From an uncultured Chloroflexia bacterium (GTDB lineage Bacteria; Chloroflexota; Limnocylindria; Limnocylindrales; CSP1-4), in NCBI GenBank assembly GCA_963698595.1, contig CAVORL010000006.1:968900-1032899 (forward strand): DNA of 64,000 nt. Reading direction: 5' to 3'. Position numbers and translations under genes: made by a program. Of this stretch, positions 41,615 to 62,696 are shown piece by piece. Within the stretch, counting starts at the first letter, position 1, and each line of letters begins with the position of its first letter. A model generated the notes under the pieces. It saw nothing but the letters and a program-made list of their open reading frames with translations, ran no database searches and was not told where the DNA came from.

Positions 41615-41657
41615 TTGACCGAGCGCCGCGCGAGGCGTATTCTCGATAATCGATCAT
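41615..41657 (+). promoter_or_regulatory. sigma70-like promoter TTGACC-17-TATTCT abutting an AT-rich operator (ATAATCGATCAT)
   Basis: -35 at 41615-41620 and -10 at 41638-41643. The operator 12-mer at 41646-41657 matches the palindrome ATAATCGATTAT at 11/12 and lies 76 bp upstream of the SDR gene. Confidence 0.6.
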
Positions 41658-41732
41658 CCCCACTCACGGGCACGTCGGGGGAGCATATCCAGCAGGGCCA
41701 CGACGGGATGCGGATCCCGGGAGGGAGCACGA

Positions 41733-42518
41733 ATGAACCAGCCTGATCTCTTCCGCCTCGACGGCCGGGTGGCCCTCGTCCCCGGCGGCGGAGGGGCCAT
41801 CGGCTCCGCAGTCGCGGCGGCCCTTGCCCAAGCGGGCGCCCGGGTCACCGTGGTCGACGTGACCGACGAGCGCGCCGAGGCCGCGGCAGCGACGATCCGG
41901 GATGCTGCTCCGGAGGTCCTGGCCCTCGGGGCGGATGCCACGAGCGAGGCCGATTGCGAGAGGATCGTCGCGGCCACCGTCGAGAGGTTCGGCCGGCTCG
42001 ACATTGTCGTCAACTGCGTCGGCGGGGGCGCGGGCAAGGTCCTCTTCGACGCCGAGGAGTACCCGCGAGACGCCTGGGACTGGATCTACGAGCTCAATGT
42101 CCGGAGCACACTCCTCGCCACGCAGGCCGCGGTCAAGGCGATGAAGGCCGGTGGGCACGGTGGGCGCGTGGTCAACATCTCGTCCGTCCGCGCGGCGCTT
42201 GGCATCAACGCTGGCTACTCGGCGTACGTGGCTGCGAAGGGCGCGATCAGCTCCCTCACCCGCCAGTGGGCCACTGAGTGGGCGAAGCACGGCATCACGG
42301 TCAACGCGATCGCCCCGACCTTCGTGGACACCCCGCAGGTGGCGATGCTCCTCGGCGACCCCGCCTTCAAAGCCGGCCTCGTCAGCCGCATCCCGCTCGG
42401 CCGCGTCGGCGGGACATCGGACCTCACCGGGGCCGTCATCTTCTTCTGCTCCGACGCCTCGTCGTTCGTCACTGGCCAGATCCTCGGGATCGACGGCGGC
42501 CTGACGGCGACGCAGTAG
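41733..42518 (+). CDS. short-chain dehydrogenase/reductase (SDR)
   Basis: Glycine-rich ALVPGGGGAIGSA, NCVG, and the catalytic YSAYVAAKGA (YxxxK). Confidence 0.88.
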   Translation: MNQPDLFRLDGRVALVPGGGGAIGSAVAAALAQAGARVTVVDVTDERAEAAAATIRDAAPEVLALGADATSEADCERIVAATVERFGRLDIVVNCVGGGAGKVLFDAEEYPRDAWDWIYELNVRSTLLATQAAVKAMKAGGHGGRVVNISSVRAALGINAGYSAYVAAKGAISSLTRQWATEWAKHGITVNAIAPTFVDTPQVAMLLGDPAFKAGLVSRIPLGRVGGTSDLTGAVIFFCSDASSFVTGQILGIDGGLTATQ

Positions 42519-42533
42519 AAAGGAACGTTCGCC

Positions 42534-43469
42534 TTGACCACCGAAGCCCTCTCCTCGCAGGCCGGGTCCATCGTGATGGAGCGCGTGACCGCCAACGTCT
42601 TCACGAACACCAAGCTCCGCGGCTGCAACCCGAGCTTCGTCACCACGTCGGACGGCGTCGTCGTCATCGACACCCCGCAGCTTCCGACGAAGGCGGTGGC
42701 GATGCGCCGCGAGGCCGAGTCCCACGGCCCGATCCGGTACCTCGTCAACACCGAGCACCACGTCGACCACATCTTCGGCAACTACTTCTTCAAGGGCGCG
42801 GGGACGGTCGTCAATCACCAGGGCGTGGACGAGCGCTTCATGGTGGTCTACCCGGAGCTCGACCCGTACGCCTATGCCTACGAATCGGTCCCGGGAGACA
42901 ACCCGAAGGGAACCGACCTCGACGAACCCGAAGGGGTCGCGCTCTGGCCCGACCGCGACGTCTACTACGCCGATCCGAACAAGGCCACGATCGTGTTCAC
43001 CGGTGACCTGACCCTCCGCGTCGGCGACCACACGTTCAACCTCCTGCACACGCCCGGCCACACGCCCGGCCAGCTCACCGTGCACGTCCCGGAGGAAGGT
43101 GTCGTCTTCACCGGCGACACGATCTTCTCCGGCTGCCAGACGTGGCTGATGACCTCGAACGTGGAGCAGTGGCTGGCCGCCATCGAGCGCATCCGTGGCC
43201 TCGAGTTCGACCGGATCGTCCCGGGCCACGGGCCGGTGGTCCCCAAGTCGTACCTCGACGTCCAGCGCTCGCACCTCATGGAGTGGAAGTCGGCAATCGC
43301 GGCGGCGGTCGCGAATGGCTGGACCCGAGACGAGACGGTCGCCCGGGTGAGCTTCAAGGACCGCTTCGGGCCGGTCGACGTCGGCCAGGGCTACATGCTG
43401 GAGTACATCCAGAACCTCAACGCCGCGACCCTGTACGACAAGCTCACCGGAGCCATCCCGGGAGCCTGA
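42534..43469 (+). CDS. MBL-fold metallo-hydrolase
   Basis: HxHxDH motif NTEHHVDHIFG, plus TPGHTPGQ and VPGHGP. Confidence 0.85.
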   Translation: MTTEALSSQAGSIVMERVTANVFTNTKLRGCNPSFVTTSDGVVVIDTPQLPTKAVAMRREAESHGPIRYLVNTEHHVDHIFGNYFFKGAGTVVNHQGVDERFMVVYPELDPYAYAYESVPGDNPKGTDLDEPEGVALWPDRDVYYADPNKATIVFTGDLTLRVGDHTFNLLHTPGHTPGQLTVHVPEEGVVFTGDTIFSGCQTWLMTSNVEQWLAAIERIRGLEFDRIVPGHGPVVPKSYLDVQRSHLMEWKSAIAAAVANGWTRDETVARVSFKDRFGPVDVGQGYMLEYIQNLNAATLYDKLTGAIPGA

Positions 43470-43551
43470 GTTACGAGGGGCGCCCTACGCGGCCGCCCTG
43501 CCGCAGCGGACGCCCCCCCGACCGCCGTTCCCCCGCCTGGGAGGCCACACG

Positions 43552-44607
43552 ATGCCCGAGACCATGCAGGCGCTTGTCGTCCTGGAGCCCGGTCGTCTCG
43601 AGATCCGCGAGGTGCCGGTCCCCCACCCCGGCCCCAACGAGGTCCTGGCGCGGGTGCGCGCCGTGTCGATCTGCGGCACGGACGCGCACCTGATCCGTGG
43701 CGACTACCCGGGATTCTGGCCCCCCGCGTTCCCGTTCATCCCGGGCCACGAGTGGGCCGGCGAGATCGCGGCGTTGGGCCCCGGCGCCGAGCTGTACGGG
43801 TGGAGGTTGGGCGACCGCGTCGCCGGCACCTCCCACGACGCGTGCGGCGTCTGCCGGGAGTGCGTGGAGGGCCGCTACAACCTCTGCGAGAACTACGGGA
43901 GGGAAGGTCTCCACCGCCAGTACGGGCACAACGTCCAGGGTGCTGACGCCACGTTCGTGGTGCAGGGCGTCAAGACGATCTTCCCCCTGCCGGACGCTCT
44001 CTCCTTCGAGGATGGCGCCCTCATCGATCCCGCCTCAATCGCCCTCCACGTCGCGAATCGTGGCAACGTCACCCCGGGCGACACCGTGGCGATCACGGGC
44101 GCAGGGGCGATCGGGCTCCTGGCCGGCGACGCGGCGCGCATCCGCGGAGCGGGCCGGGTCATCGTCGTCGGCCGCGGCTCGCGCCTGGCGAAGGCCGCGG
44201 CGCTCGGCTTCGAGACCGTCAACACGGCGGCCGGCGACCCCGTGGGGTCCGTCCGGCGCATGACCGGAGGCCTCGGGGCCGACGTCGTCCTCGAGTGCGC
44301 CGGCGTGCCCGAGATGGTGGAGCGGGCGCTCGAGATGCTGCACCGGGGCGGCCGCTGCGCCGCCGTCGGCATTCCCACGGTCGGGGTGGAGATCGCGATG
44401 CAGCGTCTCGTCCTCGATGAGCTGGAGCTGGTGGGCTCGCGCGCATCGGCCGGCGAGATGCGGCGGGTCATGCCCCACGTCGAAGCGGGTCGGATGCGGG
44501 TCAGGGAGATGGTCACCCATCGCTTCGCGCTGGCCGACTATGCGGAGGCGCTGGCCACCTTCAGCGACCGGTCCAGCGGGGCGGTCAAGATCATCGTGGC
44601 GCCCTGA
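43552..44607 (+). CDS. zinc-dependent medium-chain alcohol/polyol dehydrogenase (paralog A)
   Basis: SICGTDAH, GHEWAGEI, the structural-zinc cluster CGVCRECVEGRYNLC and ITGAGAIGL. About 80% identical by eye to the gene at 48243..49289. Confidence 0.9.
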   Translation: MPETMQALVVLEPGRLEIREVPVPHPGPNEVLARVRAVSICGTDAHLIRGDYPGFWPPAFPFIPGHEWAGEIAALGPGAELYGWRLGDRVAGTSHDACGVCRECVEGRYNLCENYGREGLHRQYGHNVQGADATFVVQGVKTIFPLPDALSFEDGALIDPASIALHVANRGNVTPGDTVAITGAGAIGLLAGDAARIRGAGRVIVVGRGSRLAKAAALGFETVNTAAGDPVGSVRRMTGGLGADVVLECAGVPEMVERALEMLHRGGRCAAVGIPTVGVEIAMQRLVLDELELVGSRASAGEMRRVMPHVEAGRMRVREMVTHRFALADYAEALATFSDRSSGAVKIIVAP

Positions 44608-44622
44608 GTCGCGAGGATCAGC

Positions 44623-45135
44623 ATGTCGCTCGAAGCCAGTTCCCGACCCGGGAGTCAGATCGTCTATCGATCGCGCGTTGATGTCGTGCCCGGCCTGGAG
44701 AAGTCCAAGCTCGTCTACCTGCCGGCCGAGCAGGACCCGGTCCTGATGGGGTTTCATGGCGACCTCGCGCCCCGCTTCGGGCTGGTCGAAGGCGCGTACA
44801 CGCCCAGGGCCTCGACCCTCGACTACATCGTTGGCGCCACCGCCGGCTGCATGACGGGCGTCCTCGCGGCGGCGCTCACCGCCCGGAAGATCGCCGTCCG
44901 CGACGGTCGCCTGAAGGTCGAGGCCGTCGGCGACGTGGAGCTCGACGATGGCATCCTGGTCCTGCGGCGGATCCATCTCCTGGCCCATCTGCTCGCCGAT
45001 GAGTCGCACCGCGCGGCCGCCGAGCGCGTCGCCGCGACGTTCGAGCGCCAATGTCCCGTCTACCGGTCGCTCCACGCGGCGATCGAGATCACGTCGGAGC
45101 TGGACTTCCAGCCGATCCGCCCGCCGACGGACTGA
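44623..45135 (+). CDS. OsmC/Ohr-family protein
   Basis: 170 aa with the paired conserved Cys contexts (ATAGCMTG and ERQCPVY) typical of the OsmC fold. Confidence 0.7.
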   Translation: MSLEASSRPGSQIVYRSRVDVVPGLEKSKLVYLPAEQDPVLMGFHGDLAPRFGLVEGAYTPRASTLDYIVGATAGCMTGVLAAALTARKIAVRDGRLKVEAVGDVELDDGILVLRRIHLLAHLLADESHRAAAERVAATFERQCPVYRSLHAAIEITSELDFQPIRPPTD

Positions 45136-45149
45136 CGGCGCCCCACGCG

Positions 45150-45923
45150 TCAGGAGGGGTCCGCCGCCCCCAGGACATAACCGCCATCCACGTCGATCAC
45201 GGCGCCGGTCACGAAGCGCCCGCCGGGACCGCACAGCCAGGCGATCGCCTCGGCGACGTCGGCCGGCTCGCCGACCGTCGAGAGCGCCTGGCGACCGAAG
45301 GCGAGGCCCGTCGCGAACTTCGCGCGCTCCTCCGCCTCGGACAGGCCGCGCAGCTCCGACGGGATGATGCCCGGGCGAATGACGTTGACCCGGATCCCGT
45401 CGCGCCCGAGGTCCAGGGCGAGGGCCCGACTCATGGCCTCCACGGCGCCCTTGCTGGCCACGTAGCCGAAGCGGCCGCGCGGCGGCCGGGCAACCACGGT
45501 GGATCCCAGGTTGATCACGACCCCGCGGCTCCTCCGGAGCTCCACGAGCGCGGCCCGCGTGCAGCGAAAGACGCTCACGACGTTGGCCCGGAGCATCCCC
45601 TCGAAGTCCTCGTCCTCGAGGGTGTCGAGGGGGCCCTGGACCTCGCTTCCAGCGTTGTTCACGAGGGCGTCGAGACCCCCGAATGCCGACACGGCCGCGA
45701 GGATCATGGCCCGGGCGTCGGCCTCGAGGGTGACGTCGGCACGCTGGATGACGACCCGGCCGGGGGCACCGGCAAGGTCGTCCGCGAGGCGTTCCAGCCG
45801 GTCTTGCCGTCGCGCGACCGCCAGCACGCTGGCGCCACGCTCCACGAGGTGACGCACGGCGTGTGCCCCCAGGCCGCTCGACGCGCCGGTGATGATGATC
45901 CGGCAGCCCTCCAGCGAGGTCAC
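45150..45923 (-). CDS. short-chain dehydrogenase/reductase (SDR)
   Basis: ITGASSGLGA, NNAG and YVASKGA (YxxxK). Confidence 0.88.
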   Translation of the reverse strand: MTSLEGCRIIITGASSGLGAHAVRHLVERGASVLAVARRQDRLERLADDLAGAPGRVVIQRADVTLEADARAMILAAVSAFGGLDALVNNAGSEVQGPLDTLEDEDFEGMLRANVVSVFRCTRAALVELRRSRGVVINLGSTVVARPPRGRFGYVASKGAVEAMSRALALDLGRDGIRVNVIRPGIIPSELRGLSEAEERAKFATGLAFGRQALSTVGEPADVAEAIAWLCGPGGRFVTGAVIDVDGGYVLGAADPS

Positions 45924-45954
45924 CCGTCGCTCCCCCGCCCGTTGCCGGTCGTCA

Positions 45955-48183
45955 TCAGGCCCGCCCGGCCGCCACCTCGTCGGCGCGGCTCCGACCGGCG
46001 AGCAGGATCAGGTCCTCGTGCAGCTCGAACCAGACGCCGTGGTAGCTGTCGACGCGCGGCGAGGCGACGTAGCGATGATCGCCCCCGGCTGCTGCCTCGG
46101 CCGCCCGGTCGAGGCGCCCCAGGTAGCCCGCGAGACGCGGCAGGCCGTCGATGAGCGGCTGCAGCCACGCGCACGCGTCTCCGTGGAGGGCGGCCAGGTC
46201 AGCGAGGACCCTCGCGTCGTAGTCCGGGTCGGTGTGGTCGTTGAAGGCCTGCGCTCCGTTGCTCTCGCGCATCTGCCAGGCCGTGACCGTCGTCTTCATC
46301 CGCTGGTCGAGGGCGATGAACCCGTCGAGGGCGGCTGCGGCACGCTCCGGGCCCCAGGCCAGACGGTCCTCGGCGATCCTCGCGGCGCCAGCCGCCTTGC
46401 CGTCAGCGGTCAGCCGGAACGCGCTCGCGGCGACTTCCGCCATGCCGTCCGCCACGAGGCGGTCCAGCAGCGCGCTCGCATCTTCGGCCGTCGTCAGGAG
46501 CGCCGCCGCCGCGGCTTCGGGCGTCGAGTAGCCCTTCACCGCGAGCGCCCGGAGCATGCTCTCGGTCGTGGCCGTCGTGGCGACTTCGGTTGCCGTGGCG
46601 ACTTCGGTTGCCGTGGCGACCCCGGTTGCCGTGGCGACCCCGGTTGCCGTGGCGACCCCGGTTGCCGTGGCGACCCCGGTTGGTGTGGCGGCGGCCGATG
46701 TCGCTGCGGGCGTCGCAGGGGCGCCGATCTCGATCCCCAGCTCGCGCGCCCAGTCAAGGAGCGTGGCGGCTTCTGGAACGATGGTCGCCGCGCCGACGAC
46801 CGCGCCGGCAAAGATCTCGCCGGTCGCCCCGTCGATCGTGATCGTGTCGCCAACGGCGAACGTCCGGCCGCCGATGACGACCACGCCGTCCGTGACGCGC
46901 ACCGACGCCGCCCCGACGACTGCGGGGATCCCCCAGCCGCGCGCCACAACGGCCGCATGACTCGCCAGGCCGCCGGTGGAGGTCAGGATCCCGACTGCGC
47001 TCGCCATACCGTGGACGTCATCGGGCGACGTCTCGGCCCGAACGAGGATGACCGCACGCCCGGATGCCGTGGCGGAGACGGCTGCGTCGGGCGTCGTGAC
47101 GATCTCACCCGACGCCACGCCGGGGGACGCGGGCAGCCCCGTGGCAACGGTCGGGCCGACGTCTCCACGGTTTACCACCGTCGTCGGCGGGTCTGCCAGC
47201 AGGCCGGCCACGCGTCGCACGGCCTCCTCGCGCGAGAGAGGGAACTCAGGGTCCTCAGCCATGTCGACGGCGATCCGCAGCGCCGCCTGCGGGCTTCGCT
47301 TCCCCACCCGGCACTGGAGCATCCAGAGCCGGCCATGCTCGATCGTGAACTCGATGTCGCAGAGATCGGCGTGGTGGCGCTCCAGGCGCGCGGCATACTC
47401 GCGGAGCTGGCGCCCCACGGCCGGAATCCTCTCGTCCAGAGCGCCGATCGGTTCGGTCTGGTGGGTGCCGGCGACGACATCCTCGCCCTGGGCGTTGAAG
47501 ATCACATCGCCGTAGACGACCGGATCGCCGGTGGCCGGGTTCCGGGTGAACAGGACCCCGGACCCCGACTCAACGCTCCGGTTGCCGAAGACCATGGCCT
47601 GGACGGTGACCGCCGTCCCCAGGTCGCGTGGAATCCCTTCACGTTCGCGATATGCCCGTGCCCGGTCGCTGTTCCACGAGCGGAAGACCGCCTCGACTGC
47701 GGCGCGCAGCTGGTCCCATGGGTTCACGGGAATGCTGTCGCCGCCGACGATGTCGCGAAACGCCGCCTCGAAGCGCAGTTGACAGTTCGCGGCGAACTTC
47801 GGGCTGCCCGACGACGCTGCGAGACCGGCCGTCGTGGCGTCATTGATGCCGAGATTGAGGATCGTGTCCATCATCCCGGGCATCGACACCGGCGCTCCGG
47901 ATCGGACGCTCACGAGAAGTGGGTTGTCCGCGTCCCCGAAGCCGTGGCCAACGAGCTCCTCGATGCGTGCCATGTGCTCGCGGAGCTCCCCGTCGAGCGC
48001 GGCCGGCCATCCTCGAGCGAGATACTCGCTGCAGGCTGCGGTCGAGATCGTGAAGGCGGGCGGCACCGGGAGGCCGAGGTCGAGCGCCATCACGGCGAGG
48101 TTCGCGGCCTTGCCCCCCAGCAGCCGCTTGACCTCCGGCTGGGGAAGGTCGAGGCGCTGGTCGCAGTCGTAGACGTAGGTCAC
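45955..48183 (-). CDS. pyruvate-phosphate-dikinase-like protein lacking the C-terminal TIM barrel; carries a repeat linker and an unknown C-terminal domain
   Basis: The N-terminus GGKAANLAVM...GLPVPPAFTIST is a PPDK_N ATP-grasp. The central swivel domain is TSTGGLASHAAVVARGWGIPAVVG. After ITIDGATGEIFAG comes (TGVATA)n and then about 250 aa with no PEP/pyruvate-binding motifs. Confidence 0.8.
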   Translation of the reverse strand: MTYVYDCDQRLDLPQPEVKRLLGGKAANLAVMALDLGLPVPPAFTISTAACSEYLARGWPAALDGELREHMARIEELVGHGFGDADNPLLVSVRSGAPVSMPGMMDTILNLGINDATTAGLAASSGSPKFAANCQLRFEAAFRDIVGGDSIPVNPWDQLRAAVEAVFRSWNSDRARAYREREGIPRDLGTAVTVQAMVFGNRSVESGSGVLFTRNPATGDPVVYGDVIFNAQGEDVVAGTHQTEPIGALDERIPAVGRQLREYAARLERHHADLCDIEFTIEHGRLWMLQCRVGKRSPQAALRIAVDMAEDPEFPLSREEAVRRVAGLLADPPTTVVNRGDVGPTVATGLPASPGVASGEIVTTPDAAVSATASGRAVILVRAETSPDDVHGMASAVGILTSTGGLASHAAVVARGWGIPAVVGAASVRVTDGVVVIGGRTFAVGDTITIDGATGEIFAGAVVGAATIVPEAATLLDWARELGIEIGAPATPAATSAAATPTGVATATGVATATGVATATGVATATEVATATEVATTATTESMLRALAVKGYSTPEAAAAALLTTAEDASALLDRLVADGMAEVAASAFRLTADGKAAGAARIAEDRLAWGPERAAAALDGFIALDQRMKTTVTAWQMRESNGAQAFNDHTDPDYDARVLADLAALHGDACAWLQPLIDGLPRLAGYLGRLDRAAEAAAGGDHRYVASPRVDSYHGVWFELHEDLILLAGRSRADEVAAGRA
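46571..46696. repeat. 18-bp in-frame tandem repeat (about 7 units) inside the PPDK-like gene
   Basis: The unit GTTGCCGTGGCGACCCCG occurs four times perfectly (46607-46678). Two units carry ...CTTCG and degenerate copies flank them. It encodes TGVATA/TEVATA hexapeptides on the minus strand. Confidence 0.95.
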
Positions 48184-48242
48184 GGAGCGGCTCCTTGAGT
48201 GCCCTCGGCCTGCCGCGCGCTGGGGGACGCGCGGCCGGCCAC

Positions 48243-49289
48243 TCAGGGCGCGACGATGATCTTGATGGCCCCGCTCGCGGGGTCGTTGAAGGTGGCGAGA
48301 GCCTGCCCGAACTCGGACAGGCTGAAGTGGTGCGTCGTGACGTCACGAACCCGCATCCTGCCTTGCTCCACGAGCGGCATGACGCGCCGCATCTCGCCCG
48401 CGGAGGCCCGCGAGCCGACGAGCTCCAGCTCGTCGAGGACGAGGCGCTGCATCGCGATCTCGACACCGACCGTGGGAATCCCGACGGCGGCACACCGACC
48501 GCCGCGGCGGAGCATGCCCAGCGCCTGCTGGACGGTCTCCGGGACGCCGGCGCACTCGAGGACGACGTCGACCCCGAAGCCGCCGGTCATCTCGCGAACC
48601 GCCGCGACGGGGTCGCCCACCGTCGCGTCGACGGTCTCGAAACCCATCGCCGCCGCCTTGGCGAGGCGCTTCGCGTTGCGCTCGATGAGGATCACCCGGG
48701 CGGCTCCACGGATCAGCGCGGCGTCGCCGCCGAGGAGGCCGATGGCGCCGGCGCCCGTGATCGCGACGGCATCGCCGGGGGCGATGTTGCCGCGGTTGGC
48801 GACGTGGAGGGCGATGGAGGCCGGGTCGATGACCGCCCCGTCGTCGAACGACAGCGCGTCCGGGAGCGGGAAGATCGTCTTGACGCCCTGCACCACGTAG
48901 GTCGCGTCGGCGCCCTGGACGCTGTGGCCGTATTGCTTGTGGAGCCCCTCGCGGCCGTAGTTCTCGCACAGGTTGTAACGGCCCTCGACGCACTTCTGGC
49001 AGACGCCGCACGCGTCGTGCGACGTGCCGGCGACGCGGTCTCCGACCCGCCATCCGTAGCGCTCGGCACCCGGACCGAGCTCCACGATCTCGCCGGCCCA
49101 CTCGTGGCCCGGGATGAACGGGAAGGCCGGGGGCCAGAAGCCCGGGTAGTCGCCCCGCACGATGTGGGCGTCCGTGCCGCAGATGGAGACCGCCCGCACG
49201 CGCGCCAGGACCTCACCCGGTCCGGGTACCGGCACCGGGACTTCCTGGATCTCGAAACGGCTCGGCTCGAGGACGACGAGCGCCTCCAT
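48243..49289 (-). CDS. zinc-dependent medium-chain alcohol/polyol dehydrogenase (paralog B)
   Basis: From ATG 49289 (MEALVVLEP). It has the same motif set as paralog A (SICGTDAH, GHEWAGEI, CGVCQKCVEGRYNLC). It lies in inverted orientation relative to 43552..44607. Confidence 0.9.
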   Translation of the reverse strand: MEALVVLEPSRFEIQEVPVPVPGPGEVLARVRAVSICGTDAHIVRGDYPGFWPPAFPFIPGHEWAGEIVELGPGAERYGWRVGDRVAGTSHDACGVCQKCVEGRYNLCENYGREGLHKQYGHSVQGADATYVVQGVKTIFPLPDALSFDDGAVIDPASIALHVANRGNIAPGDAVAITGAGAIGLLGGDAALIRGAARVILIERNAKRLAKAAAMGFETVDATVGDPVAAVREMTGGFGVDVVLECAGVPETVQQALGMLRRGGRCAAVGIPTVGVEIAMQRLVLDELELVGSRASAGEMRRVMPLVEQGRMRVRDVTTHHFSLSEFGQALATFNDPASGAIKIIVAP

Positions 49290-49312
49290 GGTTGCGGGCA
49301 CGGGAACCTCCT

Positions 49313-50203: not shown

Positions 50204-50228
50204 TTCCGGCCCTCCCTGGTCGAGGTGC

Positions 50229-52954: not shown

Positions 52955-52958
52955 CTCG

Positions 52959-53822: not shown

Positions 53823-53839
53823 GCTGGCGGCCTCTTCCC

Positions 53840-54727: not shown

Positions 54728-54764
54728 GGTGTCCTTTCGCGTGGTGACTGAGAAGGTGAGGCAG

Positions 54765-55517
54765 TCATGAGCGTCGATCGCCGAGGGAGGCGGCCGCCGC
54801 GCCCGCCAGCGATGCGACCGTCGGGGACGCATCCGGGTCGATCCCGGAGGCCATGCCGCCGGCGGCCTCCCAGTGGGTGCCCAGCGTGTCCGCGGCCTGT
54901 GCGAAGTGGGCGTGGAAGACCTCGCCGACAAGCGAAGGGTCGCGCCGCCGGAGGGCGTCGAGAACCGGGACGTGCTCGTCCGCGATCCGGCGCCGGTCGG
55001 CGCCGGGCGTGACGATTGTGATGTAGGTGCGCGAGAACGGCTCCAGCGTACGCCAGACCCGTTCCAGGGTTGTGTTGCCAGCCAGCGCGACGACACGGCC
55101 GTGGAAGGCCGCGTCGGCGGTCGCCTCTGCGTACGTGTCGCCGGCGTCGGCCGCTCGCTGCATCTCCGTGACGAACCCCGCGAGCTCGTCGAGGTCGTCG
55201 TCGGTGAGGCGCGGGAGGGCCAGGCGGGCGGCGAGCGTCTCGAGCTCGGCGCGGATCACGAATGCCTCGAGGAGCTCGTCCGCCGACGGGCGGCGGACGC
55301 GAGCTCCCCGGAAGGCGGTGGTCTCCACGACCCCGAGGGCCTCGAGGTCGCGCAGCGCCTCCCGCACGGGTGCCTGGCTCGTGCCGAGCTCCCGGGCCAC
55401 CCGGGTCTCGACGATCCGGGCGCCGGGCGGGTAGCGACCGTCGAGGATCGCCTGCAGGAGACGATCCTTGACCTGGTCGCTGAGGACGCTGCGCGAGATC
55501 GCGGCTTCGCGAATCAT
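54765..55517 (-). CDS. GntR-family transcriptional regulator (FadR/FCD subfamily)
   Basis: From ATG 55517. The N-terminal wHTH is ETRVARELGTSQAPVREALRDLEALGVV, followed by an all-helical FCD-type C-terminal domain. Confidence 0.88.
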   Translation of the reverse strand: MIREAAISRSVLSDQVKDRLLQAILDGRYPPGARIVETRVARELGTSQAPVREALRDLEALGVVETTAFRGARVRRPSADELLEAFVIRAELETLAARLALPRLTDDDLDELAGFVTEMQRAADAGDTYAEATADAAFHGRVVALAGNTTLERVWRTLEPFSRTYITIVTPGADRRRIADEHVPVLDALRRRDPSLVGEVFHAHFAQAADTLGTHWEAAGGMASGIDPDASPTVASLAGAAAASLGDRRS

Positions 55518-55527
55518 GGTCCCGTCG

Positions 55528-57297
55528 CTAGCTTCCGATGATCGCGGGCGCGGGCGCGGTGCTCTCAAGGATCTCCACCACGCCGGCGTTGCCGTCGACG
55601 CGGATCCGATCCCCGGTCTTGATGGTCCACGTGCCGATCGAGGTGCCCACGACCGCCGGGATGCCGTACTCGCGCGCCAGGACGGCCGGGTGCGAGACGG
55701 TGCCGCCGGCGTCGGTCACCACGGCGATGATCTTGCCGTACAGGACCTGCCAGGCCGGGTTGGTCATCTGGCAGACGAGGATCTCGCCTTCCTGAAGGCT
55801 GTCGAACTCAGCCTCGGACGAGACGACGCGGGCGATGCCCTCGACGACGCCCGGCGAGCCGGCGATGCCCGGGACCTTGCCCTCCTCGTGATCGACCGAG
55901 CGGTAGAACTTGTCGGGGAATCCCCACAGGTTCAGGTACGGGAAGGCGAGCTGCGTCGCGGTACAGGTACCCACCCAGTCTTTGGGCTGGTACGCCTCCG
56001 CCTCGGCCCGCTTTGCCCGCGCCGCGGCTGCGATCGCACGCCCGTCCATGCCGGTCGGGTTGCCGACGAAGGCGCGCAGGTCGTTGTAGCGGAACATGAT
56101 GACGTCGTCCGGGGCGTCGAGGACGCCCATCTCCACGAGCTTCTCGCCGAGGGCGATCAGCACGAGGCGGACGTGGGCGTTGGCGCCCTGGTCGATGTAG
56201 AAGTGGTGGTCCGGCGTCAGCGGGGCCATCTTGAGGTTGATCTCGTTGGCGGCGCGCATCTCCTCGAGCGCCTCGCCCTGCAACCCCTCGAGGATCTGCT
56301 TCGCGGCGGCATCGATGTCGGCCTTGAGCGCCGCAACCTTCGACTGGTAGTCGTAGTCCGACGCGTACTGGTCGCGGACGAGCTGGATGATCGGGTTCAT
56401 GTCCTCCCGGAACGACGGGAAGATGAACTCGTGGCTCCAGACCGCGTGCCAGCCGAACTCCTTCTGGTAGGGCACGACCCGCTCGTCGATGAAGCGCCGG
56501 CCGCGCGCGGTCGCCTGGAGGGCGGGCAGGATCACCGCGGATGTGGTGCCGCCGAATGCCGTGGCCAGCTCGGCGTCGACCTTGATCTCCTCCTTCATCT
56601 CCCAGAGCGCACGGATCTTGTCCCAGTTCCGGTCGCTGGCCGAGTTCTGCAGCCGCCCGAGCAGGACCTCGTCGACCTTGCCATGGGTCTTCTCCATGAC
56701 GGCCCGGAGGTTGAGCGTGGCGCTGAGCTGCGCGAAGTTCAGCATCCAGTGGATCTTCCAGTGGCGGTCGTGCATGTCGATGGCGTCTTCGAGGAGGACG
56801 GCCACCTCGGCAAGGCTCAGCTGGTCCTTCTGGTCGAGCATCCCCTCGATGTAGTCGAAGTTCCGCTGCATCTCGGGCACGAACCTGGTGCGCCACCACT
56901 CGACGAACTTATGGCCGTAGACCGGCAGGACGGCGCCGAGGTAGGCCCCGATCTTGCCGGCATACTCCGGGTCCTCGGGCACGATCGGGTTCGTGCGGTA
57001 GTTGTACTCCTGGGTCTCGACGGTCAGGCCGGCCTCGGCGGGGATCGCGGCCGTGTACAGCCAGCCGTTGATGTTCTTGTAGATCCAGTCCGTCGCGAAG
57101 GGAGTGCCGAAGCGGCGGAACATGTGGTCGCAGGAGAGCCACCAGCCGCCGATGTCCTCGTACATCGGGCTGAGCGGCTTGGGGCAGTGCAGGTCGTCGT
57201 AGACCCAGAAGAGCAGCTTCTCGGTTTCGGACGCCCACTCGATCGGGAACGTCTCGTCACCGTGGAACTCGCCGAGGACTTCTTCCTTGAGGGGCAC
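55528..57297 (-). CDS. PEP-utilising-enzyme mobile-domain protein (phenylphosphate synthase alpha/PpsA-like architecture)
   Basis: The C-terminal swivel domain is LVCQMTNPAW...TDAGGTVSHPAVLAREYGIPAVVG. From memory, the N-terminal block LLFWVYDDLHCPKPLSP resembles the substrate-binding part of PpsA-like phosphotransferases. No ATP-grasp domain is present. Confidence 0.7.
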   Translation of the reverse strand: MPLKEEVLGEFHGDETFPIEWASETEKLLFWVYDDLHCPKPLSPMYEDIGGWWLSCDHMFRRFGTPFATDWIYKNINGWLYTAAIPAEAGLTVETQEYNYRTNPIVPEDPEYAGKIGAYLGAVLPVYGHKFVEWWRTRFVPEMQRNFDYIEGMLDQKDQLSLAEVAVLLEDAIDMHDRHWKIHWMLNFAQLSATLNLRAVMEKTHGKVDEVLLGRLQNSASDRNWDKIRALWEMKEEIKVDAELATAFGGTTSAVILPALQATARGRRFIDERVVPYQKEFGWHAVWSHEFIFPSFREDMNPIIQLVRDQYASDYDYQSKVAALKADIDAAAKQILEGLQGEALEEMRAANEINLKMAPLTPDHHFYIDQGANAHVRLVLIALGEKLVEMGVLDAPDDVIMFRYNDLRAFVGNPTGMDGRAIAAAARAKRAEAEAYQPKDWVGTCTATQLAFPYLNLWGFPDKFYRSVDHEEGKVPGIAGSPGVVEGIARVVSSEAEFDSLQEGEILVCQMTNPAWQVLYGKIIAVVTDAGGTVSHPAVLAREYGIPAVVGTSIGTWTIKTGDRIRVDGNAGVVEILESTAPAPAIIGS

Positions 57298-57345
57298 CGG
57301 TGCTTCCTCCTGTACCTGCCTGGTGTCGCCCGTGGCGACCTGGTC

Positions 57346-58182
57346 TCAGATGGCAGAGGTCGTGCGCGTGATTGCCTTGAAGCGCCGCATGTTCTCCGTG
57401 ATCGCCACCTCCGTCGGGAGCCGCTCCATGCTGGACGCGCCGAAGAAGCCGGCCACGCCTGTCGTGTGTTCGAGGATGTACTGGGCGTCCTCCGGCTCGG
57501 CGATGGGGCCGCCGTGGCAGAGGACGATGGCGTCGGGGTTGACCGCCGCGGCAGCGTCCCGGATCGCCTGGACGAGCTCGGCCGCCTGCACCATGGTGAC
57601 CGCCGTCGTGGCGCCGATGACACCCTTCGTCGTCAGCCCGATGTGGGCCACCACGACGTCGGCCCCTGCCGCGGCCATGTCGCGCGCCTGGTCGGGGTCG
57701 AAGACGTACGGAGTTGTCACGAGACCCGCTTCATGGGCTGCCCGGATCATGTCCACCTCGAGGCTGAAGCCCATGCCGGTCTCCTCGAGGTTCTGCCGGA
57801 ACCGGCCATCGATCAATCCCACGGTCGGGAAGTTCTGGACTCCGGAGAAGCCAACCCGTCGGACCTCCTCGAGGAAGACCGGCATGAGCCGGAACGGGTC
57901 GGTGCCGCAGACGCCCGCCATCACCGGTGTCACCTTCACGACGGGGAGGACCTCACCGGCCATCTCCATCACGATCGCGTTGGCGTCACCGTAGGGCATG
58001 CAGCCGGCCAACGAGCCACGGCCTGCCATGCGGTAGCGTCCCGAGTTGTAGATGATGATGAGGTCGGCGCCGCCCGCCTCCGCGCACTTGGCCGAGAGCC
58101 CAGTCCCGGCCCCGGAGCCCATGATCACGCCGCCCCCATCGAGCGTCCTGCGGAGGCGTGTCAGCACATCGTCCCTGTTCAT
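57346..58182 (-). CDS. PEP-hydrolase-like TIM-barrel protein (Tm-1 C-terminal-domain family)
   Basis: From ATG 58182. [47 protein letters not shown] is the hallmark N-terminal block of this family. The start overlaps the upstream stop (ATGA). Confidence 0.8.
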
Positions 58183-59429
58183 GCGCGCCCTCCTGCGTTC
58201 GCCGTCTGCCCCGTGGCCCACGCACGGTAATGCGCGTCGAGCCGCTCGGCCATCGCCGTCGCGAAGTCCGGGTCGTTGATGTCGGTTGCCATCACGACGA
58301 CCTCGACATCCGGCCGAAGCCCGGACCGCAGCTCCCGGATGAGGGCTGCATCGGCGGCCGGGTCGTGGAACGGGGCGCCGGGGACGTCAATCATCGAGAC
58401 CCCGCCGAGCGGGATGAAGACGCTCAGGGGTCCCGTCGCCTGGTTCAGCTTGCGGGCCATGATCCGCCCCAGCTCGGCGCACTCCTCCTCCGTCGTCCGC
58501 ATGAGCGTAACCGTCGCGTTGTGGACATAGAGGTTGCGGCCCCTGAACTCCGGGGGGACCGTCTCCTCGGGCCCGAAGTTGCACATGTCGAGGGCCCCGA
58601 GCGAGACGACCTGGGGGATGCCGAGGGAGCCCGCCATCTCGAGCCGTTCGGGTCCTGCGGAGAGGACCCCTCCGACCAGCTCGTCCACGAGCTCGGTGGT
58701 CGTGATGTCGAGCGACCCCGTGATGAAGCCGGCCTGCATGAGGGCTTCCATGGACCTCCCGCCGGAGCCCGTGGCGTGGAAGACGAGGACCTCGTAGCCG
58801 TGCGCTTCCAGCCACTCCCGGGCCACCGTGACGCTCGGGGTCGTCACCCCGAACATCGTGGCCCCGATGAGCGGTTTCGGCGGGATCTTCGAGACGAACG
58901 ACGCCGACGCCCTCGCCATCCCGGCGATCCCGACGGCCGCGTTGGTGAGGATCCTTTCCGAGAGGACGTTGATGCCGGCGATATCGACGACGGAGTACAT
59001 CATCGCGATATCGGAGGTACCGACGTAGGGGCGGGTGTCCCCGGAACCCATCGTCGAGACGATCATCTTGGGGACGCCGACCGGCAGGGCCTGCATCGCC
59101 GCGCAGACGATCGACGAGCCGCCCGACCCGCCCACGCCGAGGATCCCGTCGAGCTTGCCCTCCGCGTGGAGGCGCTTGACGATCTCGGTCGCGCCACGGC
59201 TCATGGCGAGGACGCCCGGCCCGCGGTCGCCGGCCGCGGCCAGGGCGGCGCGGCTCTCGCCGGCCGCCCCCGCGACCTCGTCGGCGGTGATGTCGCCCGG
59301 CGACGGGTCGCTCAGCACGCCCGCGTCGACGAGGATCACGTCACATCCGGTTTCGCGGACCCGATCGCGCAGGAACTCGTACTCGCTGCCCTTCGTGTCG
59401 AGGGTCCCGAGGAGCACGACGCTCGTCAT
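58179..59429 (-). CDS. UPF0261-family protein (Tm-1 N-terminal-domain family, nucleotide binding)
   Basis: From ATG 59429. It has [28 protein letters not shown] and MFGVTTP blocks. It is the first gene of the long minus-strand gene train. Confidence 0.8.
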
Positions 59430-59515
59430 GCGTGCGACCTCCTGCGACTCCGCCCGGGCGCCGGTGTGGGTGTGGGGGTTCCCTGGCGGCCGCAATGGGA
59501 GCCCGCATACACTCG

Positions 59516-59562
59516 ATAATCGATTACCGATAACGATAGGAACCGGCACCCGGTCCCGTCAA
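59516..59562 (-). promoter_or_regulatory. sigma70-like promoter (TTGACG-18-TATCGT, minus strand) followed by an AT-rich operator
   Basis: -35 is the complement of 59557-59562 and -10 the complement of 59533-59538. The operator 12-mer at 59516-59527 (ATAATCGATTAC, 11/12) lies 87 bp upstream of the UPF0261 gene start. Confidence 0.6.
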
Positions 59563-59736
59563 GCCCCAAACGGTCCTCGGACGGCTCTCGGGCACTGACC
59601 TGGGCCCGGGCGGCATGACCGTGCGGCCGGCGCGCGGCACGACGCGGGACGATTGAGCCCGTCATGGACGGGCTCGACGACCCGGTGATCTGGGCGGCCC
59701 GGCTCGACGATCCCCCGCCCCTCGCCGCGTGGCAGC

Positions 59737-59777
59737 TTGATTGCCCCCTTGCAGAACAAGCATCGATCATCGATTAT
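59737..59777 (+). promoter_or_regulatory. -35-like TTGATT plus an AT-rich operator upstream of the transaldolase gene
   Basis: The operator 12-mer ATCATCGATTAT at 59766-59777 matches at 11/12. TTGATT lies at 59737-59742. The -10 is not convincing (AAGCAT). Confidence 0.5.
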
Positions 59778-59850
59778 ATCCTCGACCGCAGACCGTTGCA
59801 CGGCCGAGGAAACGGATGCCGGCCCACACCGCCTTCGCCGAGGTGACTCC

Positions 59851-60945
59851 ATGCTGACCGCTGCGCCCCATAGCCCACTCCTGCGGATGACGCAGGAAAC
59901 CCCCACCCAGTACTGGAACGATTCCTGCGCGGTCGAGGAGCTCGCCTACGCGGTCGAGCGCGGCGCGACCGGCGCGACCTCGAATCCGAGCATCGTGCTC
60001 GAGGTCATGAAGAAGGAGCGGGCCCACTGGGTACCGCGCGTCCTCGAGATGGCCGCGGCCAACCCGACATGGTCGGAGGTCGAGCTGACCTGGGCGATCA
60101 TCGAGGAGATGGCCACCCGGGGCGCTGGGATCCTGGAGCCGGTCTTCGATCGGCTCGACGGCCGGGCCGGGCGGCTCTCCGTCCAGACAAACCCCGCGAA
60201 CCACAGGGATCCGACCCGCATGGTCGAGCAGGCGGTCCGCTTCGCCGGCCTTGCGCGGAACATGCAGGTCAAGTTCCCGGCCACCGCGGCCGGGATCACG
60301 GCGATCGAGGAGGCCACGTTTCGCGGCGTCAGCATCAACGCCACCGTGAGCTTCACCGTGCCGCAGGCGCTTGCCGCCGCTGAGGCCGTCGAGCGCGGTC
60401 TCGAGAGGCGTGTGGCCGCCGGCGGCGACGTCGCATCGATGACCCCGATAGTCACCATCATGATCGGCCGGCTCGACGACTGGATGAAGGTCCTCGTCGA
60501 GCGCGACGACCTGGCGGTCCACCCGGACGCACCGAACTGGGCCGGCATCGCCGCGTTCAAGCGAGCCTACGCCATCTTCCGGGAGCGCCGATACCGGTCG
60601 CGCTTGCTTGCCGCCGCCTACCGGCACCGGCTCCACTGGACGGAGCTCGTGGGTGGGGACGTGAGCATGACGCTCCCCTACCCCTGGCAGGTCCGCTTCA
60701 ACAAGAGCGGAATCGAGCCCGTGGCTCGGATGGAGGCTCCCGTCGATCCGGCACTCATCGCGGACCTCTACGATCGCATCCCCGACTTCCGGCGAGCGTA
60801 CGAACCCGACGGCCTCATGCCCGAGGAGTTCGAGGGCTTCGGGGCCAGCTCCCGGACCCTCCGCACGTTCGTGAAGTCCTACCACGACCTCCAGGCAGCC
60901 ATCCGCGACCTGGTCCTGCCCGACCCGGACGTCCGCCTGGCCTGA
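59851..60945 (+). CDS. transaldolase-family protein
   Basis: ATG 59851 has a GAGGTG RBS. It has TQYWNDSC, GATGATSNPSI and VQTNP, with the Schiff-base Lys context MQVKFPAT. Confidence 0.85.
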   Translation: MLTAAPHSPLLRMTQETPTQYWNDSCAVEELAYAVERGATGATSNPSIVLEVMKKERAHWVPRVLEMAAANPTWSEVELTWAIIEEMATRGAGILEPVFDRLDGRAGRLSVQTNPANHRDPTRMVEQAVRFAGLARNMQVKFPATAAGITAIEEATFRGVSINATVSFTVPQALAAAEAVERGLERRVAAGGDVASMTPIVTIMIGRLDDWMKVLVERDDLAVHPDAPNWAGIAAFKRAYAIFRERRYRSRLLAAAYRHRLHWTELVGGDVSMTLPYPWQVRFNKSGIEPVARMEAPVDPALIADLYDRIPDFRRAYEPDGLMPEEFEGFGASSRTLRTFVKSYHDLQAAIRDLVLPDPDVRLA

Positions 60946-60997
60946 TCCGCCCACCAGCGAACCCGACGAGAACGCTCCCAGAGGAGGCATCCCCACG

Positions 60998-62527
60998 ATG
61001 GTCATCGAGACCCCCGCGCAGCCCGCGACGCTGCCCATCCTGTCCCACTGGATCGCCGGCCGGCCGGTCGAGGTCCTGCCCGAGCAGACCGGCCCCATCT
61101 ACAACCCGGCCACCGGGCAGGTCATCGCCCGCGTCCCGCGCGGCGGGGCCGCCGAGGTCGAGGTCGCCGTGGCGGCCGCGAAGGCTGCCTTCCCGGCCTG
61201 GCGCGACACGCCCCTCATCGCCCGCAGCGGGATCTTCTTCGCCTGGCGCGAGCTGCTCTTCCGCCACCGCGAGGAGCTGGCCGCCCTCATCACCCGCGAC
61301 CACGGGAAGACGTTCCCCGACGCCTTCGCCGAGGTCATGCGGGGCCTCGAGACCGTGGAGTTCGCGGCGGGCCTGCCGGTCCACCTCGCCGGGATGATGA
61401 CGCCGAACGTCGCCACCAACGTCGACGCCTTCACGCTGCGCGCCCCGCTCGGGGTCACCGCCGCGATCACGCCCTTCAACTTCCCGGTCATGGTCCCCAT
61501 GTGGATCGTCCCGATCGCCCTCGCCTGCGGGAACACCGTCCTCCTCAAGCCCTCCAGCCACACCCCCGGCGCCACCCAGCTCCAGGCCGAGCTGTGGACG
61601 GAGGCCGGCGGGCCCGACGGCACGTTCAACGTGGTGTACGGCGGCCGGGAGGCCGTGACCGCCATCGTCGAGCATCCCGACATCCGGGCCATCCAGTTCG
61701 TCGGCTCCACCGCCGTCGGGCGCTACGTCTACGAGGAAGGCACCCGGCGCGGCAAGCGTGTCGGCGCCTACACCAGCGCCAAGAACGCGATGGTCGTCCT
61801 GCCCGACGCCGACATGGAGCTGACCGCCGACGCCGCCGTGGCATCCGGCTTCGGCTCCGCCGGCGAGCGCTGCATGGCCCAGACCCTCGTCATCGCCGTC
61901 GGCGACACCGCCGAGCGCCTGCGCCCGCTCATGCTCGAGCGGATCGCGAAGCTCAAGATCGGGCCCGGCATGGAGCAGGGCGTCGACATGGGCCCCATCT
62001 ACACCCGCGAGCACCGCGAGTCGGTGATCCGCTGGATCGACATCGGCGAGGCCGAGGGGGCCGAGCTCGTCGTCGACGGGCGGCCCTTCGTCCACCCGGA
62101 GCAGCCCGAGGGCTACTTCCTCGGCGTGTCGCTCTTCGACCACGTCACGCCGGACATGAAGATCTACCAGGAGGAGATCTTCGGGCCGGTCCTCGGCATC
62201 GTCCACGCCACCACGTACGACGAGGCGCTCGGCCTCATCAACGGCCACCAGTACGCCAACGGGACCGCGATCTTCACGACCGACGGCGGCGCCGCCCGGC
62301 GCTTCAAGCTCGAAGTCGACGTCCCGATGATCGGGGTCAACGTGCCGATCCCGGTGCCGGCCGGGTACCTCTCCTTCGGCGGCTCGAAGGAGTCGGCCCT
62401 CGGCGACCTCGCCATGCGCGGCGAGGACGGGATCCGCTTCTTCACCCAGCAGAAGATGGTCACCGAGCGCTGGCCGGAGCCCGGCCGCCGCGGCGCCCTC
62501 TCCCTCGTCTTCCCCGGCAACAGCTGA
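60998..62527 (+). CDS. mmsA: CoA-acylating methylmalonate-semialdehyde dehydrogenase (MmsA/IolA type)
   Basis: ITPFNFP, LKPS, FVGST, GERCMA (catalytic Cys) and IGVNVPIPVPAGYLSFGGSKES, which is typical of MMSDH rather than generic ALDH. Confidence 0.85.
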   Translation: MVIETPAQPATLPILSHWIAGRPVEVLPEQTGPIYNPATGQVIARVPRGGAAEVEVAVAAAKAAFPAWRDTPLIARSGIFFAWRELLFRHREELAALITRDHGKTFPDAFAEVMRGLETVEFAAGLPVHLAGMMTPNVATNVDAFTLRAPLGVTAAITPFNFPVMVPMWIVPIALACGNTVLLKPSSHTPGATQLQAELWTEAGGPDGTFNVVYGGREAVTAIVEHPDIRAIQFVGSTAVGRYVYEEGTRRGKRVGAYTSAKNAMVVLPDADMELTADAAVASGFGSAGERCMAQTLVIAVGDTAERLRPLMLERIAKLKIGPGMEQGVDMGPIYTREHRESVIRWIDIGEAEGAELVVDGRPFVHPEQPEGYFLGVSLFDHVTPDMKIYQEEIFGPVLGIVHATTYDEALGLINGHQYANGTAIFTTDGGAARRFKLEVDVPMIGVNVPIPVPAGYLSFGGSKESALGDLAMRGEDGIRFFTQQKMVTERWPEPGRRGALSLVFPGNS

Positions 62528-62568
62528 GACCGCCTCCCGGCGGCGAGCCCGCCGGGCCACGACCACGC

Positions 62569-62600
62569 GAAGGGGCCCCTCCCGGAGGAGGGGCCCCTTC
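62569..62600 (+). terminator. intrinsic terminator hairpin after mmsA
   Basis: GAAGGGGCCCCTCC-CGGA-GGAGGGGCCCCTTC forms a perfect 14-bp stem with a 4-nt loop, followed by GATTCTGTT. Confidence 0.75.
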
Positions 62601-62653
62601 GATTCTGTTCCGGGTGGGGACGGCCCCGTCACGCGACCCACCGGCCCGCGGGG

Positions 62654-62696
62654 TTGACCGGGCATCGCACCGGGCGTAACATCGATAATCGATTAT
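62654..62696 (+). promoter_or_regulatory. sigma70-like promoter TTGACC-17-TAACAT abutting the perfect palindromic operator ATAATCGATTAT
   Basis: -35 at 62654-62659, -10 at 62677-62682 and the operator at 62685-62696 (perfect 12-bp palindrome), 47 bp upstream of the cupin gene ATG. Confidence 0.65.

Follow-up and report, generated by a model that had tools for sequence, protein, structure and literature searches.

GntR regulators of the FadR subfamily, among them FadR, LldR, PdhR, DgoR and GlcC, usually recognize the operator TKGT-N3-ACMA, or TNGTNNNACNA (PMC4494728; PMC11472048), and two boxes with a 3-nt gap are the commonest spacing in the subfamily (PMC4494728). In Alcaligenes faecalis, the GntR/FadR-family repressor DipR controls the dipicolinate dip cluster, with GTATAC boxes at six promoters (PMC11472048). 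DipR is the closest described case to the locus analyzed here. This locus lies in a 64,000-nt stretch of DNA from an uncultured Chloroflexia bacterium of the Limnocylindrales (assembly GCA_963698595.1, contig CAVORL010000006.1, positions 968,900 to 1,032,899 of the forward strand), hereafter called the window. Within it a short palindromic element, TCGAT-N-ATCGA, stands in front of four transcription units (TU1 to TU4), and the second unit, TU2, encodes an FCD-type GntR regulator. We consider it probable that the four sites are the operators of a local regulon under the TU2 repressor and any paralogues of it.

DipR and the candidate are both FCD-type regulators encoded within the cluster concerned, and in both cases a short palindrome is found at the promoters of several units, overlapping -35, -10 or +1. 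In both, the sites are kept across related genomes and track rearrangements, and the operator departs from the Rigali consensus TNGTNNNACNA. DipR is autoregulated, and autoregulation is proposed for the candidate. The two cases differ in that the DipR box GTATAC keeps GT/AC and has been proven by electrophoretic mobility shift assay, footprinting and effector release, whereas TCGAT-N-ATCGA is a predicted operator. The DipR gene also has its own promoter, whereas the candidate gene lies within a 13-gene operon.

With canonical FadR operators the element shares an 11-bp odd palindrome, 4-nt boxes, a 3-nt gap, an A/T-rich context and a winged helix-turn-helix dimer as presumed binder. T at position 1 and G at position 3 of the box are kept, whereas positions 2 and 4 differ (TCGA versus TKGT), and the family-defining GT...AC is absent; on the protein side, the equivalent of FadR Arg45 is Gln in 108 of 108 homologues, whereas the Arg35 equivalent is kept. 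E. coli NanR is alike in belonging to the FadR subfamily and, if the element is read as tandem heptads, in its short head-to-tail units, to which several dimers can bind cooperatively. However, the NanR units TGGTATAW are not self-complementary, whereas those of the window are self-complementary TCGA boxes at a 7-bp pitch, mostly two per site. The closest solved structure is 7XP0/7XP1 (alignable over residues 11-207, E = 3.5e-25), which we take to be PmiR of Pseudomonas aeruginosa. PmiR has the same GntR and FCD architecture, but its recognition helix opens with the canonical S-R in place of the candidate's S-Q, and it serves another process through another operator. The regulator is a member of the GntR/FadR family, and its putative operator has the geometry of the family but not the GT...AC pair.

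The repeated element and its promoters

A sequence-only reading of the window had pointed out a perfect 12-bp palindrome at 62685-62696 with three near-copies upstream, each preceded by TCG. A mismatch scan found all of them, and the TCG is present in all four. With at most one mismatch, ATAATCGATTAT has four matches in the window (starts at 41646, 59516, 59766 and 62685), and at up to two mismatches no further match was obtained in the whole 64 kb. Dinucleotide-preserving shuffles of the window gave expected counts of 0.00 (one mismatch) and 0.06 (two mismatches), and the base composition is about 71% G+C. The motif is therefore real and far beyond chance. Allowing three mismatches added only the same four sites with the register shifted 7 bp to the left, revealing an internal 7-bp periodicity of the element. 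The plain hexamer ATCGAT occurs at chance level (17 copies against 15.8 expected), and hence the signal lies in the paired arrangement.

The candidate operators and predicted promoters are as follows.

41615..41643, plus strand: predicted promoter P1 of TU1, TTGACC-17-TATTCT (pattern scan)
41639..41657: candidate operator O1, ATTC-TCGATAATCGA-TCAT, core 41643-41653, which shares its first T with the end of the -10 hexamer
59509..59530: candidate operator O2, ACAC-TCGATAATCGATTACCGA, three TCGA-type boxes at 7-bp pitch, cores 59513-59523 and 59520-59530
59533..59562, minus strand: predicted promoter P2 of TU2, TTGACG-18-TATCGT (pattern scan)
59749..59777, plus strand: predicted promoter P3 of TU3, TTGCAG-17-GATTAT (below the scan threshold)
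59759..59777: candidate operator O3, AGCA-TCGATCATCGA-TTAT, core 59763-59773, between the -35 and -10 of P3 and overlapping the -10
62568..62601, plus strand: intrinsic-terminator-like hairpin of 15 pairs, 12 of them GC, which ends TU3 and separates it from TU4
62654..62682, plus strand: predicted promoter P4 of TU4, TTGACC-17-TAACAT (pattern scan; TTGAC-17/18-TAnnnT kept in 17 loci)
62678..62696: candidate operator O4, AACA-TCGATAATCGA-TTAT, core 62682-62692, which opens on the T that closes the -10 hexamer

The exact core TCGATNATCGA is present in all four sites, at 41643-41653, 59513-59523, 59763-59773 and 62682-62692, and each site reads TCGAT-N-ATCGA followed by T(T/C)A(T/C). Thus the conserved element, two TCGA boxes at 7-bp pitch with A/T flanks, is longer than the 12-mer and offset from it. 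The 12-mer does mark a true site, but its palindromic register was misplaced, as ATAATCGATTAT covers the left two-thirds of TCGAT-N-ATCGA plus flanks. At site 2, the promoter of the UPF0261 gene that heads TU2, a third box follows (TCGATTACCGA, 59520-59530). As had been stated at about 47-90 bp, the four sites are intergenic and lie about 47-87 bp from start codons preceded by ribosome-binding sites. A minus-strand open reading frame nominally spans site 1; it belongs to a cinA-like gene whose real start is near 41529, so site 1 is not coding.

Three promoters quoted earlier were all reproduced by the pattern scan, at 41615-41643, 59562-59533 (minus strand) and 62654-62682. P1, P2 and P4 are the sole sigma-70-like matches within 44-64 kb plus the P1 region, P3 being sub-threshold. 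The proposed repressor-type position over the transcription start holds for TU1, TU2 and TU4, where the site covers -10/+1 (O2 begins 2 nt downstream of the P2 -10), but at TU3 the site lies instead between -35 and -10. The promoter-operator modules of TU1 (41607-41657) and TU4 (62646-62696) are 75% identical over 51 nt, spacer included.

Conservation in related loci

One genome per species was searched with the window GntR protein, giving a comparison set of 80 loci (50-93% GntR identity, 1.38 Mb in total). Almost all come from metagenome-assembled genomes (MAGs) of Chloroflexota, Ca. Limnocylindria; a few are from Dormibacterota, two from Acidimicrobiia and one from a Kiloniellales MAG. This assigns the window to a Chloroflexota genome of Limnocylindria-like type rather than to an actinomycete. 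Mapping by tblastn revealed that the whole cluster is conserved among the loci, in several gene-order variants. The loci contain 175 copies of the exact core TCGATNATCGA, whereas a first-order Markov model predicts 2.8; of the 175 copies, 153 are non-coding, and these are spread over 65 of the 80 loci. The remaining 22, inside the UPF0261 gene, at the 3' end of the cyclase gene and inside the aldehyde dehydrogenase gene, were rejected as operators: they always read TCGATGATCGA, have GC-rich flanks and fall on conserved codons (..S-M-I-D.., for example GVSMIDVPG), and are taken to be coincidence. The other 15 loci have no exact non-coding core. Nine of them stop short of the promoter region, four from Dormibacterota carry one-mismatch double sites at 21-bp pitch, in another (L064) the cluster continues from upstream transporter genes, with the promoter further upstream, and the last (L074) holds a homologue that lies outside the cluster. 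Phylogenetic footprinting, which had been suggested as a check, was thus strongly positive, with exact non-coding cores in 65 of the 80 loci and one-mismatch sites in four more.

The positions of the sites follow the operons. Paired sites occupy the divergent region between the transaldolase and UPF0261 genes in 46 loci and in the window, a single site precedes the cupin-transketolase genes of TU4 in 17 loci, and a single site precedes the SDR gene (SDR1) and the metallo-beta-lactamase-fold (MBL) gene that open TU1. Where the gene order is rearranged, the site moves with the new operon start (L026/L029, L032, L045). Likewise, in Dormibacterota, Acidimicrobiia and Kiloniellales the divergent region between the PPDK_N and PEP-utilizers genes, which is a new operon start there, carries sites.

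The overlap with the promoter hexamers is conserved as well. Orthologues of O1 precede SDR1-MBL in L006, L019 and L057 and in many metagenome contigs, and TTGACC and TAnnnT of P1 are kept in L006 and L019. Upstream alignments of the cupin and SDR1 genes display TTGAC(C/G) and, after a spacer of 17-18 nt, TAnnnT; the core starts on the final T of that hexamer. The orthologue of O2, TAnnnT-ATCGRYAATCGATTATCGA, was found in 46 loci; in the alignment of UPF0261 promoters a conserved TAnnnT stands directly before ATCG(A/G)(C/T)AATCGATTATCGA, which comprises three boxes. The -35 of P3, TTGCR, is conserved in about 40 loci, and its -10 reads GAT(T/G)AT. Across the loci the operator begins on the last T of the -10 or 2-10 nt past it, and at the transaldolase promoter it lies between TTGCR and the -10.

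A sequence-weighted matrix was built from 157 non-coding sites, the 153 in the loci and the four of the window. Its consensus is A(-9) T/C A/C A(-6) TCGAT N ATCGA T(+6) g a T(+9), of which the original 12-mer represents positions -9 to +2. The flanking bases have frequencies of 0.86 for A(-9), 0.95 for A(-6), 0.56 for T(+6) and 0.68 for T(+9). The site is an odd palindrome, TCGA-TNA-TCGA, with 4-nt boxes, a 3-nt gap and A/T-rich surroundings. Across the 153 non-coding sites GA...TC is invariant and the GT...AC pair of GntR-family half-sites is absent; with TCGA as its half-site, the operator is therefore not to be filed as a canonical GntR box. A literature search with the operator strings returned unrelated oligonucleotides only, and neither these strings nor the helix SQAPVREAL had a match in the supplementary files of the 2015 GntR motif compilation, whose long files were possibly incomplete.

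The promoter-operator module was further searched for in metagenomes with the pattern TTGAC-N22-25-TCGATAATCGAT, which matched at least 120 stretches. Among the matches listed, 39 adjoin cluster genes, 38 of them in contigs of GC at least 0.65 and one at GC 0.56; the 38 precede SDR-MBL or cupin-transketolase. Another 81 among the matches listed are without cluster genes; most of them lie in low- or mid-GC DNA, as chance matches should, and the low-GC ones were set aside. A few high-GC contigs carry TTGAC...TAnnnTCGATAATCGAT before genes foreign to the window, namely a KduI/IolB isomerase (L091, 1127), an SIS_2 (SIS-domain) protein (L111) and a secreted phosphotriesterase-family protein (L107, L121 and L171). 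These may be further members of the regulon, and they hint at sugar, sugar-acid or lactone chemistry.

Two other observations were made in the loci. The cluster of some Limnocylindria genomes contains an inserted Liv-type ABC transporter operon (two permeases, two ATPases and a Peripla_BP_6 binding protein), which has two or three operators at 21-22-bp pitch (L011 3625-3742; L004 5154-5185; L005 6076-6108; L045 5519). A perfect 17-bp palindrome, GACTATCTATGATAGTC, stands immediately downstream of the operator in the loci from Acidimicrobiia and Kiloniellales (L078 8052-8068 and the same place in L079) and may be a second, different binding site.

The candidate regulator and competing explanations

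The regulator gene and its product are described in one line:

54765..55517, minus strand: candidate regulator, GntR winged helix-turn-helix plus FCD, helix GTSQAPVREAL, fourth gene of TU2

The GntR winged helix-turn-helix matches PF00392 (52.9 bits against a cut-off of 27, residues 29-91 of the long open reading frame), and the C-terminal, all-helical FCD effector and dimerisation domain matches PF07729 (90.7 bits against 24.3). The best solved relatives, 7xp0, 3c7j and 4p9f, are all FCD regulators. Of the regulator genes, this one alone is found beside the motif in every one of four taxa, namely Limnocylindria, Dormibacterota, Acidimicrobiia and the Kiloniellales MAG. This co-inheritance supports the choice of the FCD GntR as the obvious candidate and predicted binder. 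The motif stands before several units, overlaps their core promoters at the consensus level, and is conserved and co-inherited with a regulator gene; the locus has these features of a cluster regulon of the DipR kind.

The sequence-only reading had worried that, lacking a GT-N-AC core, the motif might belong to a regulator outside the window. GT...AC is indeed absent, but in the right register the site has the FadR-subfamily layout and most of the worry disappears. The helix sequence S-Q-x-P-V-R-E-A is present in 108 of 108 orthologue and paralogue matches. In BLASTP, the Gln of the SQ helix aligns with Arg45 of E. coli FadR, and the equivalent of Arg35 is kept; the residue numbers of the FadR query agree with Table 1 of PMC4494728. 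Arg35 and Arg45 of FadR make Arg-G contacts, and Gln prefers A (PMC4494728). A changed box (TCGA for TKGT) would thus be matched by a changed contact residue (Gln for Arg45), which offers a coherent explanation of the site, and one that we infer from residue-base rules.

According to the mechanism we propose, a homodimer of the TU2 GntR, a FadR-subfamily protein, would bind the TCGA-box operators, as would paralogues with the same head where present. The bound sites would cover the -10 and start of P1, P2 and P4 and the spacer and -10 of P3, so that bound GntR would exclude RNA polymerase from all four promoters. A pathway metabolite on the FCD domain would release GntR, and about 22 kb of genes would be switched on together. 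The regulator gene itself belongs to TU2, in fourth place, and would therefore be repressed by its own product. Binding by GntR, repression and relief by a ligand are all put forward here as predictions.

Several points weigh against this reading. Because the operator lacks the GT/AC of most GntR sites, the assignment to GntR depends on co-localisation and on the residue-base argument. The promoters are predicted from consensus matches only. The conserved block is not perfectly symmetric, one flank being stronger, which a simple dimer-on-palindrome model alone would leave unexplained. A GntR homologue with the same helix lies outside the cluster in L074, with no site visible nearby. All 80 loci were retrieved via the GntR gene, so that loci without it are outside the set, and orthologous sites are non-independent observations. 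Finally, since paralogues with the same helix exist, the window GntR need not be the main or sole binder.

These paralogues deserve closer consideration. One or two extra FCD regulators, at 58-67% identity and usually convergent with the transketolase operon, are found in about 25 loci (for example L015 1377-2261; L016 375-1091 and 1760-2416); the equivalent position in the source genome is just past the window end. Their DNA-binding domain is 78% identical to that of the window GntR and their FCD domain 55%, while the recognition helix is identical; their own operator is mostly absent. The earlier idea of a single repressor agrees with the motif shared by four units, but it may be too simple, given these same-helix paralogues beyond cupin-transketolase in many relatives. 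A paralogue outside the window could be the main binder, with the TU2 copy as a ligand-specific back-up or heterodimer partner, so that two or three sensors would share one set of operators. The place of the paralogues beside cupin-transketolase, at times two of them, and their conserved winged helix-turn-helix with a diverged FCD domain favor this. However, the Dormibacterota, Acidimicrobiia and Kiloniellales loci have the motif with the in-operon GntR alone in 20 kb, and the paralogues are usually without an operator of their own. We regard a paralogue as the main binder as unlikely.

The self-complementarity of the TCGA box allows three readings of the element: an odd palindrome centered on N, an even palindrome centered on CG, or tandem heptads. 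The second is the register of ATAATCGATTAT. An even palindrome with a central CpG is the usual architecture of LacI-family sites, and a different, unlinked regulator could therefore be considered, either a LacI-type dimer on the 12-mer or a global regulator, with GntR controlling something else. In the symmetry scan this register came second (10.5 versus 13.5), and the GT/AC core that most GntR sites have (PMC4494728) is missing from the motif. However, a search for the 12-mer with at most two mismatches gave 209 matches, of which 186 have an adjacent TCGA box at 7 bp, the rest being one-mismatch versions of the 11-mer; this extra box lies outside a LacI-type palindrome, and the block extends asymmetrically. 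No LacI-, IclR- or TetR-like gene was detected within 10 kb of GntR in the 80 loci or in the 64-kb window by tblastn with PurR, CcpA, an IclR-like helix-turn-helix and TetR (approximate queries). A global, host-specific factor would hardly fit a motif that stays with the cluster in four taxa. An unlinked regulator thus appears quite improbable. A DeoR-type gene beside the paralogue was considered as the regulator and rejected, being present in just 4 of the 80 loci. Apart from the TU2 GntR, the search of the window yielded a single regulator, an OmpR-type response regulator (13167-13835). With the probable sensor kinase that follows it (13167-15159 for the pair), it has no relation to the cluster, and no copy of the operator lies close by.

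The third reading, tandem heptads, touches on how GntR itself would act. Neighboring sites are spaced by 7, 21-22 or 41-42 bp; the longer of these spacings align sites along one helical face, as in cooperative repressors. Neighbors at 7 bp, that is a third box, occur in 57 cases and only at the UPF0261 promoter, all other sites consisting of two boxes. We favor two boxes as the minimal unit, and binding stoichiometry is not fixed by the motif data alone. The same GntR could be an activator or dual regulator, or, as a variant, could bind direct heptads (TCGATNA)n cooperatively in the manner of NanR. Since its boxes are self-complementary, the element can just as well be described as 7-bp units in direct repeat, with three of them at the UPF0261 promoter; the FadR-subfamily protein NanR binds tandem TGGTATAW repeats (PMC4494728) and is among the weak NCBIfam and PDB matches of the regulator. 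However, sites placed over -10/+1 or in the spacer typify repression rather than class I/II activation, and in most sites there are exactly two boxes, flanked symmetrically by A..A / T..T, so that there is only a slim chance of either variant. It is scarcely credible that the motif is no protein operator at all but a special-sigma promoter or discriminator element, an RNA element of the 5'-UTR or what is left of a dispersed repeat: part of the site would be transcribed at TU1, TU2 and TU4 and the P1 and P4 modules are alike over 51 nt, but three discrete position classes relative to -35/-10 and an orientation that varies with respect to the gene argue against a promoter element, no Rfam match was obtained in 41-64 kb and an 11-nt palindrome with a 1-nt center cannot form a hairpin, and past about 19 bp only the promoter hexamers are conserved, with copies confined to operon starts.

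A repressor function of the TU2 GntR, shared with any paralogues, is hence the reading we retain. It may be extended, more tentatively, to a joint picture that we hold possible but would not yet bet on. An FCD GntR clade of Limnocylindria, Dormibacterota, Acidimicrobiia and at least one alphaproteobacterial MAG may have switched from reading GT...AC to TCGA by exchanging Arg for Gln at the first position of the helix that contacts a base. Two or three paralogues with the same head and different ligand domains may share the operators, and several signals may thereby gate an uncharacterized cross-phylum catabolic island, comprising a MarK-like UPF0261 kinase, a two-part small-molecule dikinase, a molybdenum hydroxylase, a cyclase-type hydrolase and transketolase/transaldolase.

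Genes of the cluster and biological meaning

The four transcription units are composed as follows.

41733..45135, plus strand: TU1; SDR (41733-42518), metallo-beta-lactamase-fold protein (42534-43469), zinc-dependent alcohol dehydrogenase (Zn-ADH, 43552-44607) and OsmC-like protein (44623-45135)
45150..59429, minus strand: TU2, 13 genes
59851..62527, plus strand: TU3; transaldolase-family protein (59851-60945) and aldehyde dehydrogenase (60998-62527)
62743..64000, plus strand: TU4; cupin (62743-63111) and transketolase N-terminal subunit (from 63108), reaching the window end

In the order of transcription, TU2 begins with the UPF0261 kinase-like protein, a PEP_hydrolase-like TIM barrel, a PEP-utilizers protein, the GntR/FCD regulator and a P-loop-like hypothetical protein. 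It continues with the FAD, 2Fe-2S and molybdenum cofactor subunits of an XDH-family dehydrogenase, a cyclase-family hydrolase, a Zn-ADH, a PPDK_N and PEP-utilizers protein and an SDR. Within TU2 the pattern scan revealed no internal sigma-70-like promoter and no strong terminator. In relatives TU4 consists of cupin and the two transketolase subunit genes only (cupin-TKTn-TKTc), often followed by a convergent GntR paralogue. Co-control of everything from 41.7 kb to the window end, as first supposed, is consistent with four units headed by the motif.

One catalytic activity has been reported for UPF0261 proteins, that of the aromatic kinase MarK (PMC12624787), and the nearest structures of the PEP-utilizers protein are of the rifampicin-phosphotransferase type. 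Matches in Pfam, NCBIfam and PDB did not single out a substrate for the cluster, whose chemistry can be judged from hints only. Phenolic or heteroaromatic substrates are hinted at by the MarK-like kinase (PMC12624787), the Rph-like dikinase and the Mo-hydroxylase; sugars or sugar acids are hinted at by transketolase, transaldolase and cupin, and by the KduI/IolB and SIS genes behind the same module in metagenomes.

Some features of the genes were recorded in passing. An 18-nt tandem repeat of about 7-9 copies (46558-46719) lies within the PPDK_N/PEP-utilizers gene (45955-48183, minus strand) and encodes an (A-T-G-V-A-T)n / (A-T-E-V-A-T) linker of the dikinase-like protein. The Zn-ADH genes of TU1 (43553-44612, plus strand) and TU2 (48238-49300, minus strand) have about 80% DNA identity over about 1.05 kb, which looks like a fairly recent inverted duplication inside the cluster. 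A conserved 286-amino-acid protein with a P-loop-like GGESNHGKS (53840 to about 54700, minus strand) is encoded beside GntR in almost every related locus; comparison with Pfam, NCBIfam and PDB gave nothing for it but a faint match to PEP carboxykinase (E = 0.6).

The kind of mechanism would not be new: it would be an ordinary local repressor-operator switch whose recognition sequence is unusual. Enzymes encoded over about 22 kb, most of them unassigned, would be tied into one functional unit, including the UPF0261 kinase and its TIM-barrel partner, a PpsAB/Rph-like split dikinase, the XDH-family dehydrogenase and the conserved protein of no family. As the ligand of the regulator should be a pathway intermediate, the search for the substrate would be narrowed. 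The regulator would represent a natural GntR specificity variant, with Gln for Arg45 and TCGA for TKGT, on which residue-base rules derived from correlation studies could be tested. The locus would provide a concrete, testable regulon for Ca. Limnocylindria and Dormibacterota, lineages that abound in soil and freshwater yet are uncultured, and in which scarcely any transcriptional regulation is known.

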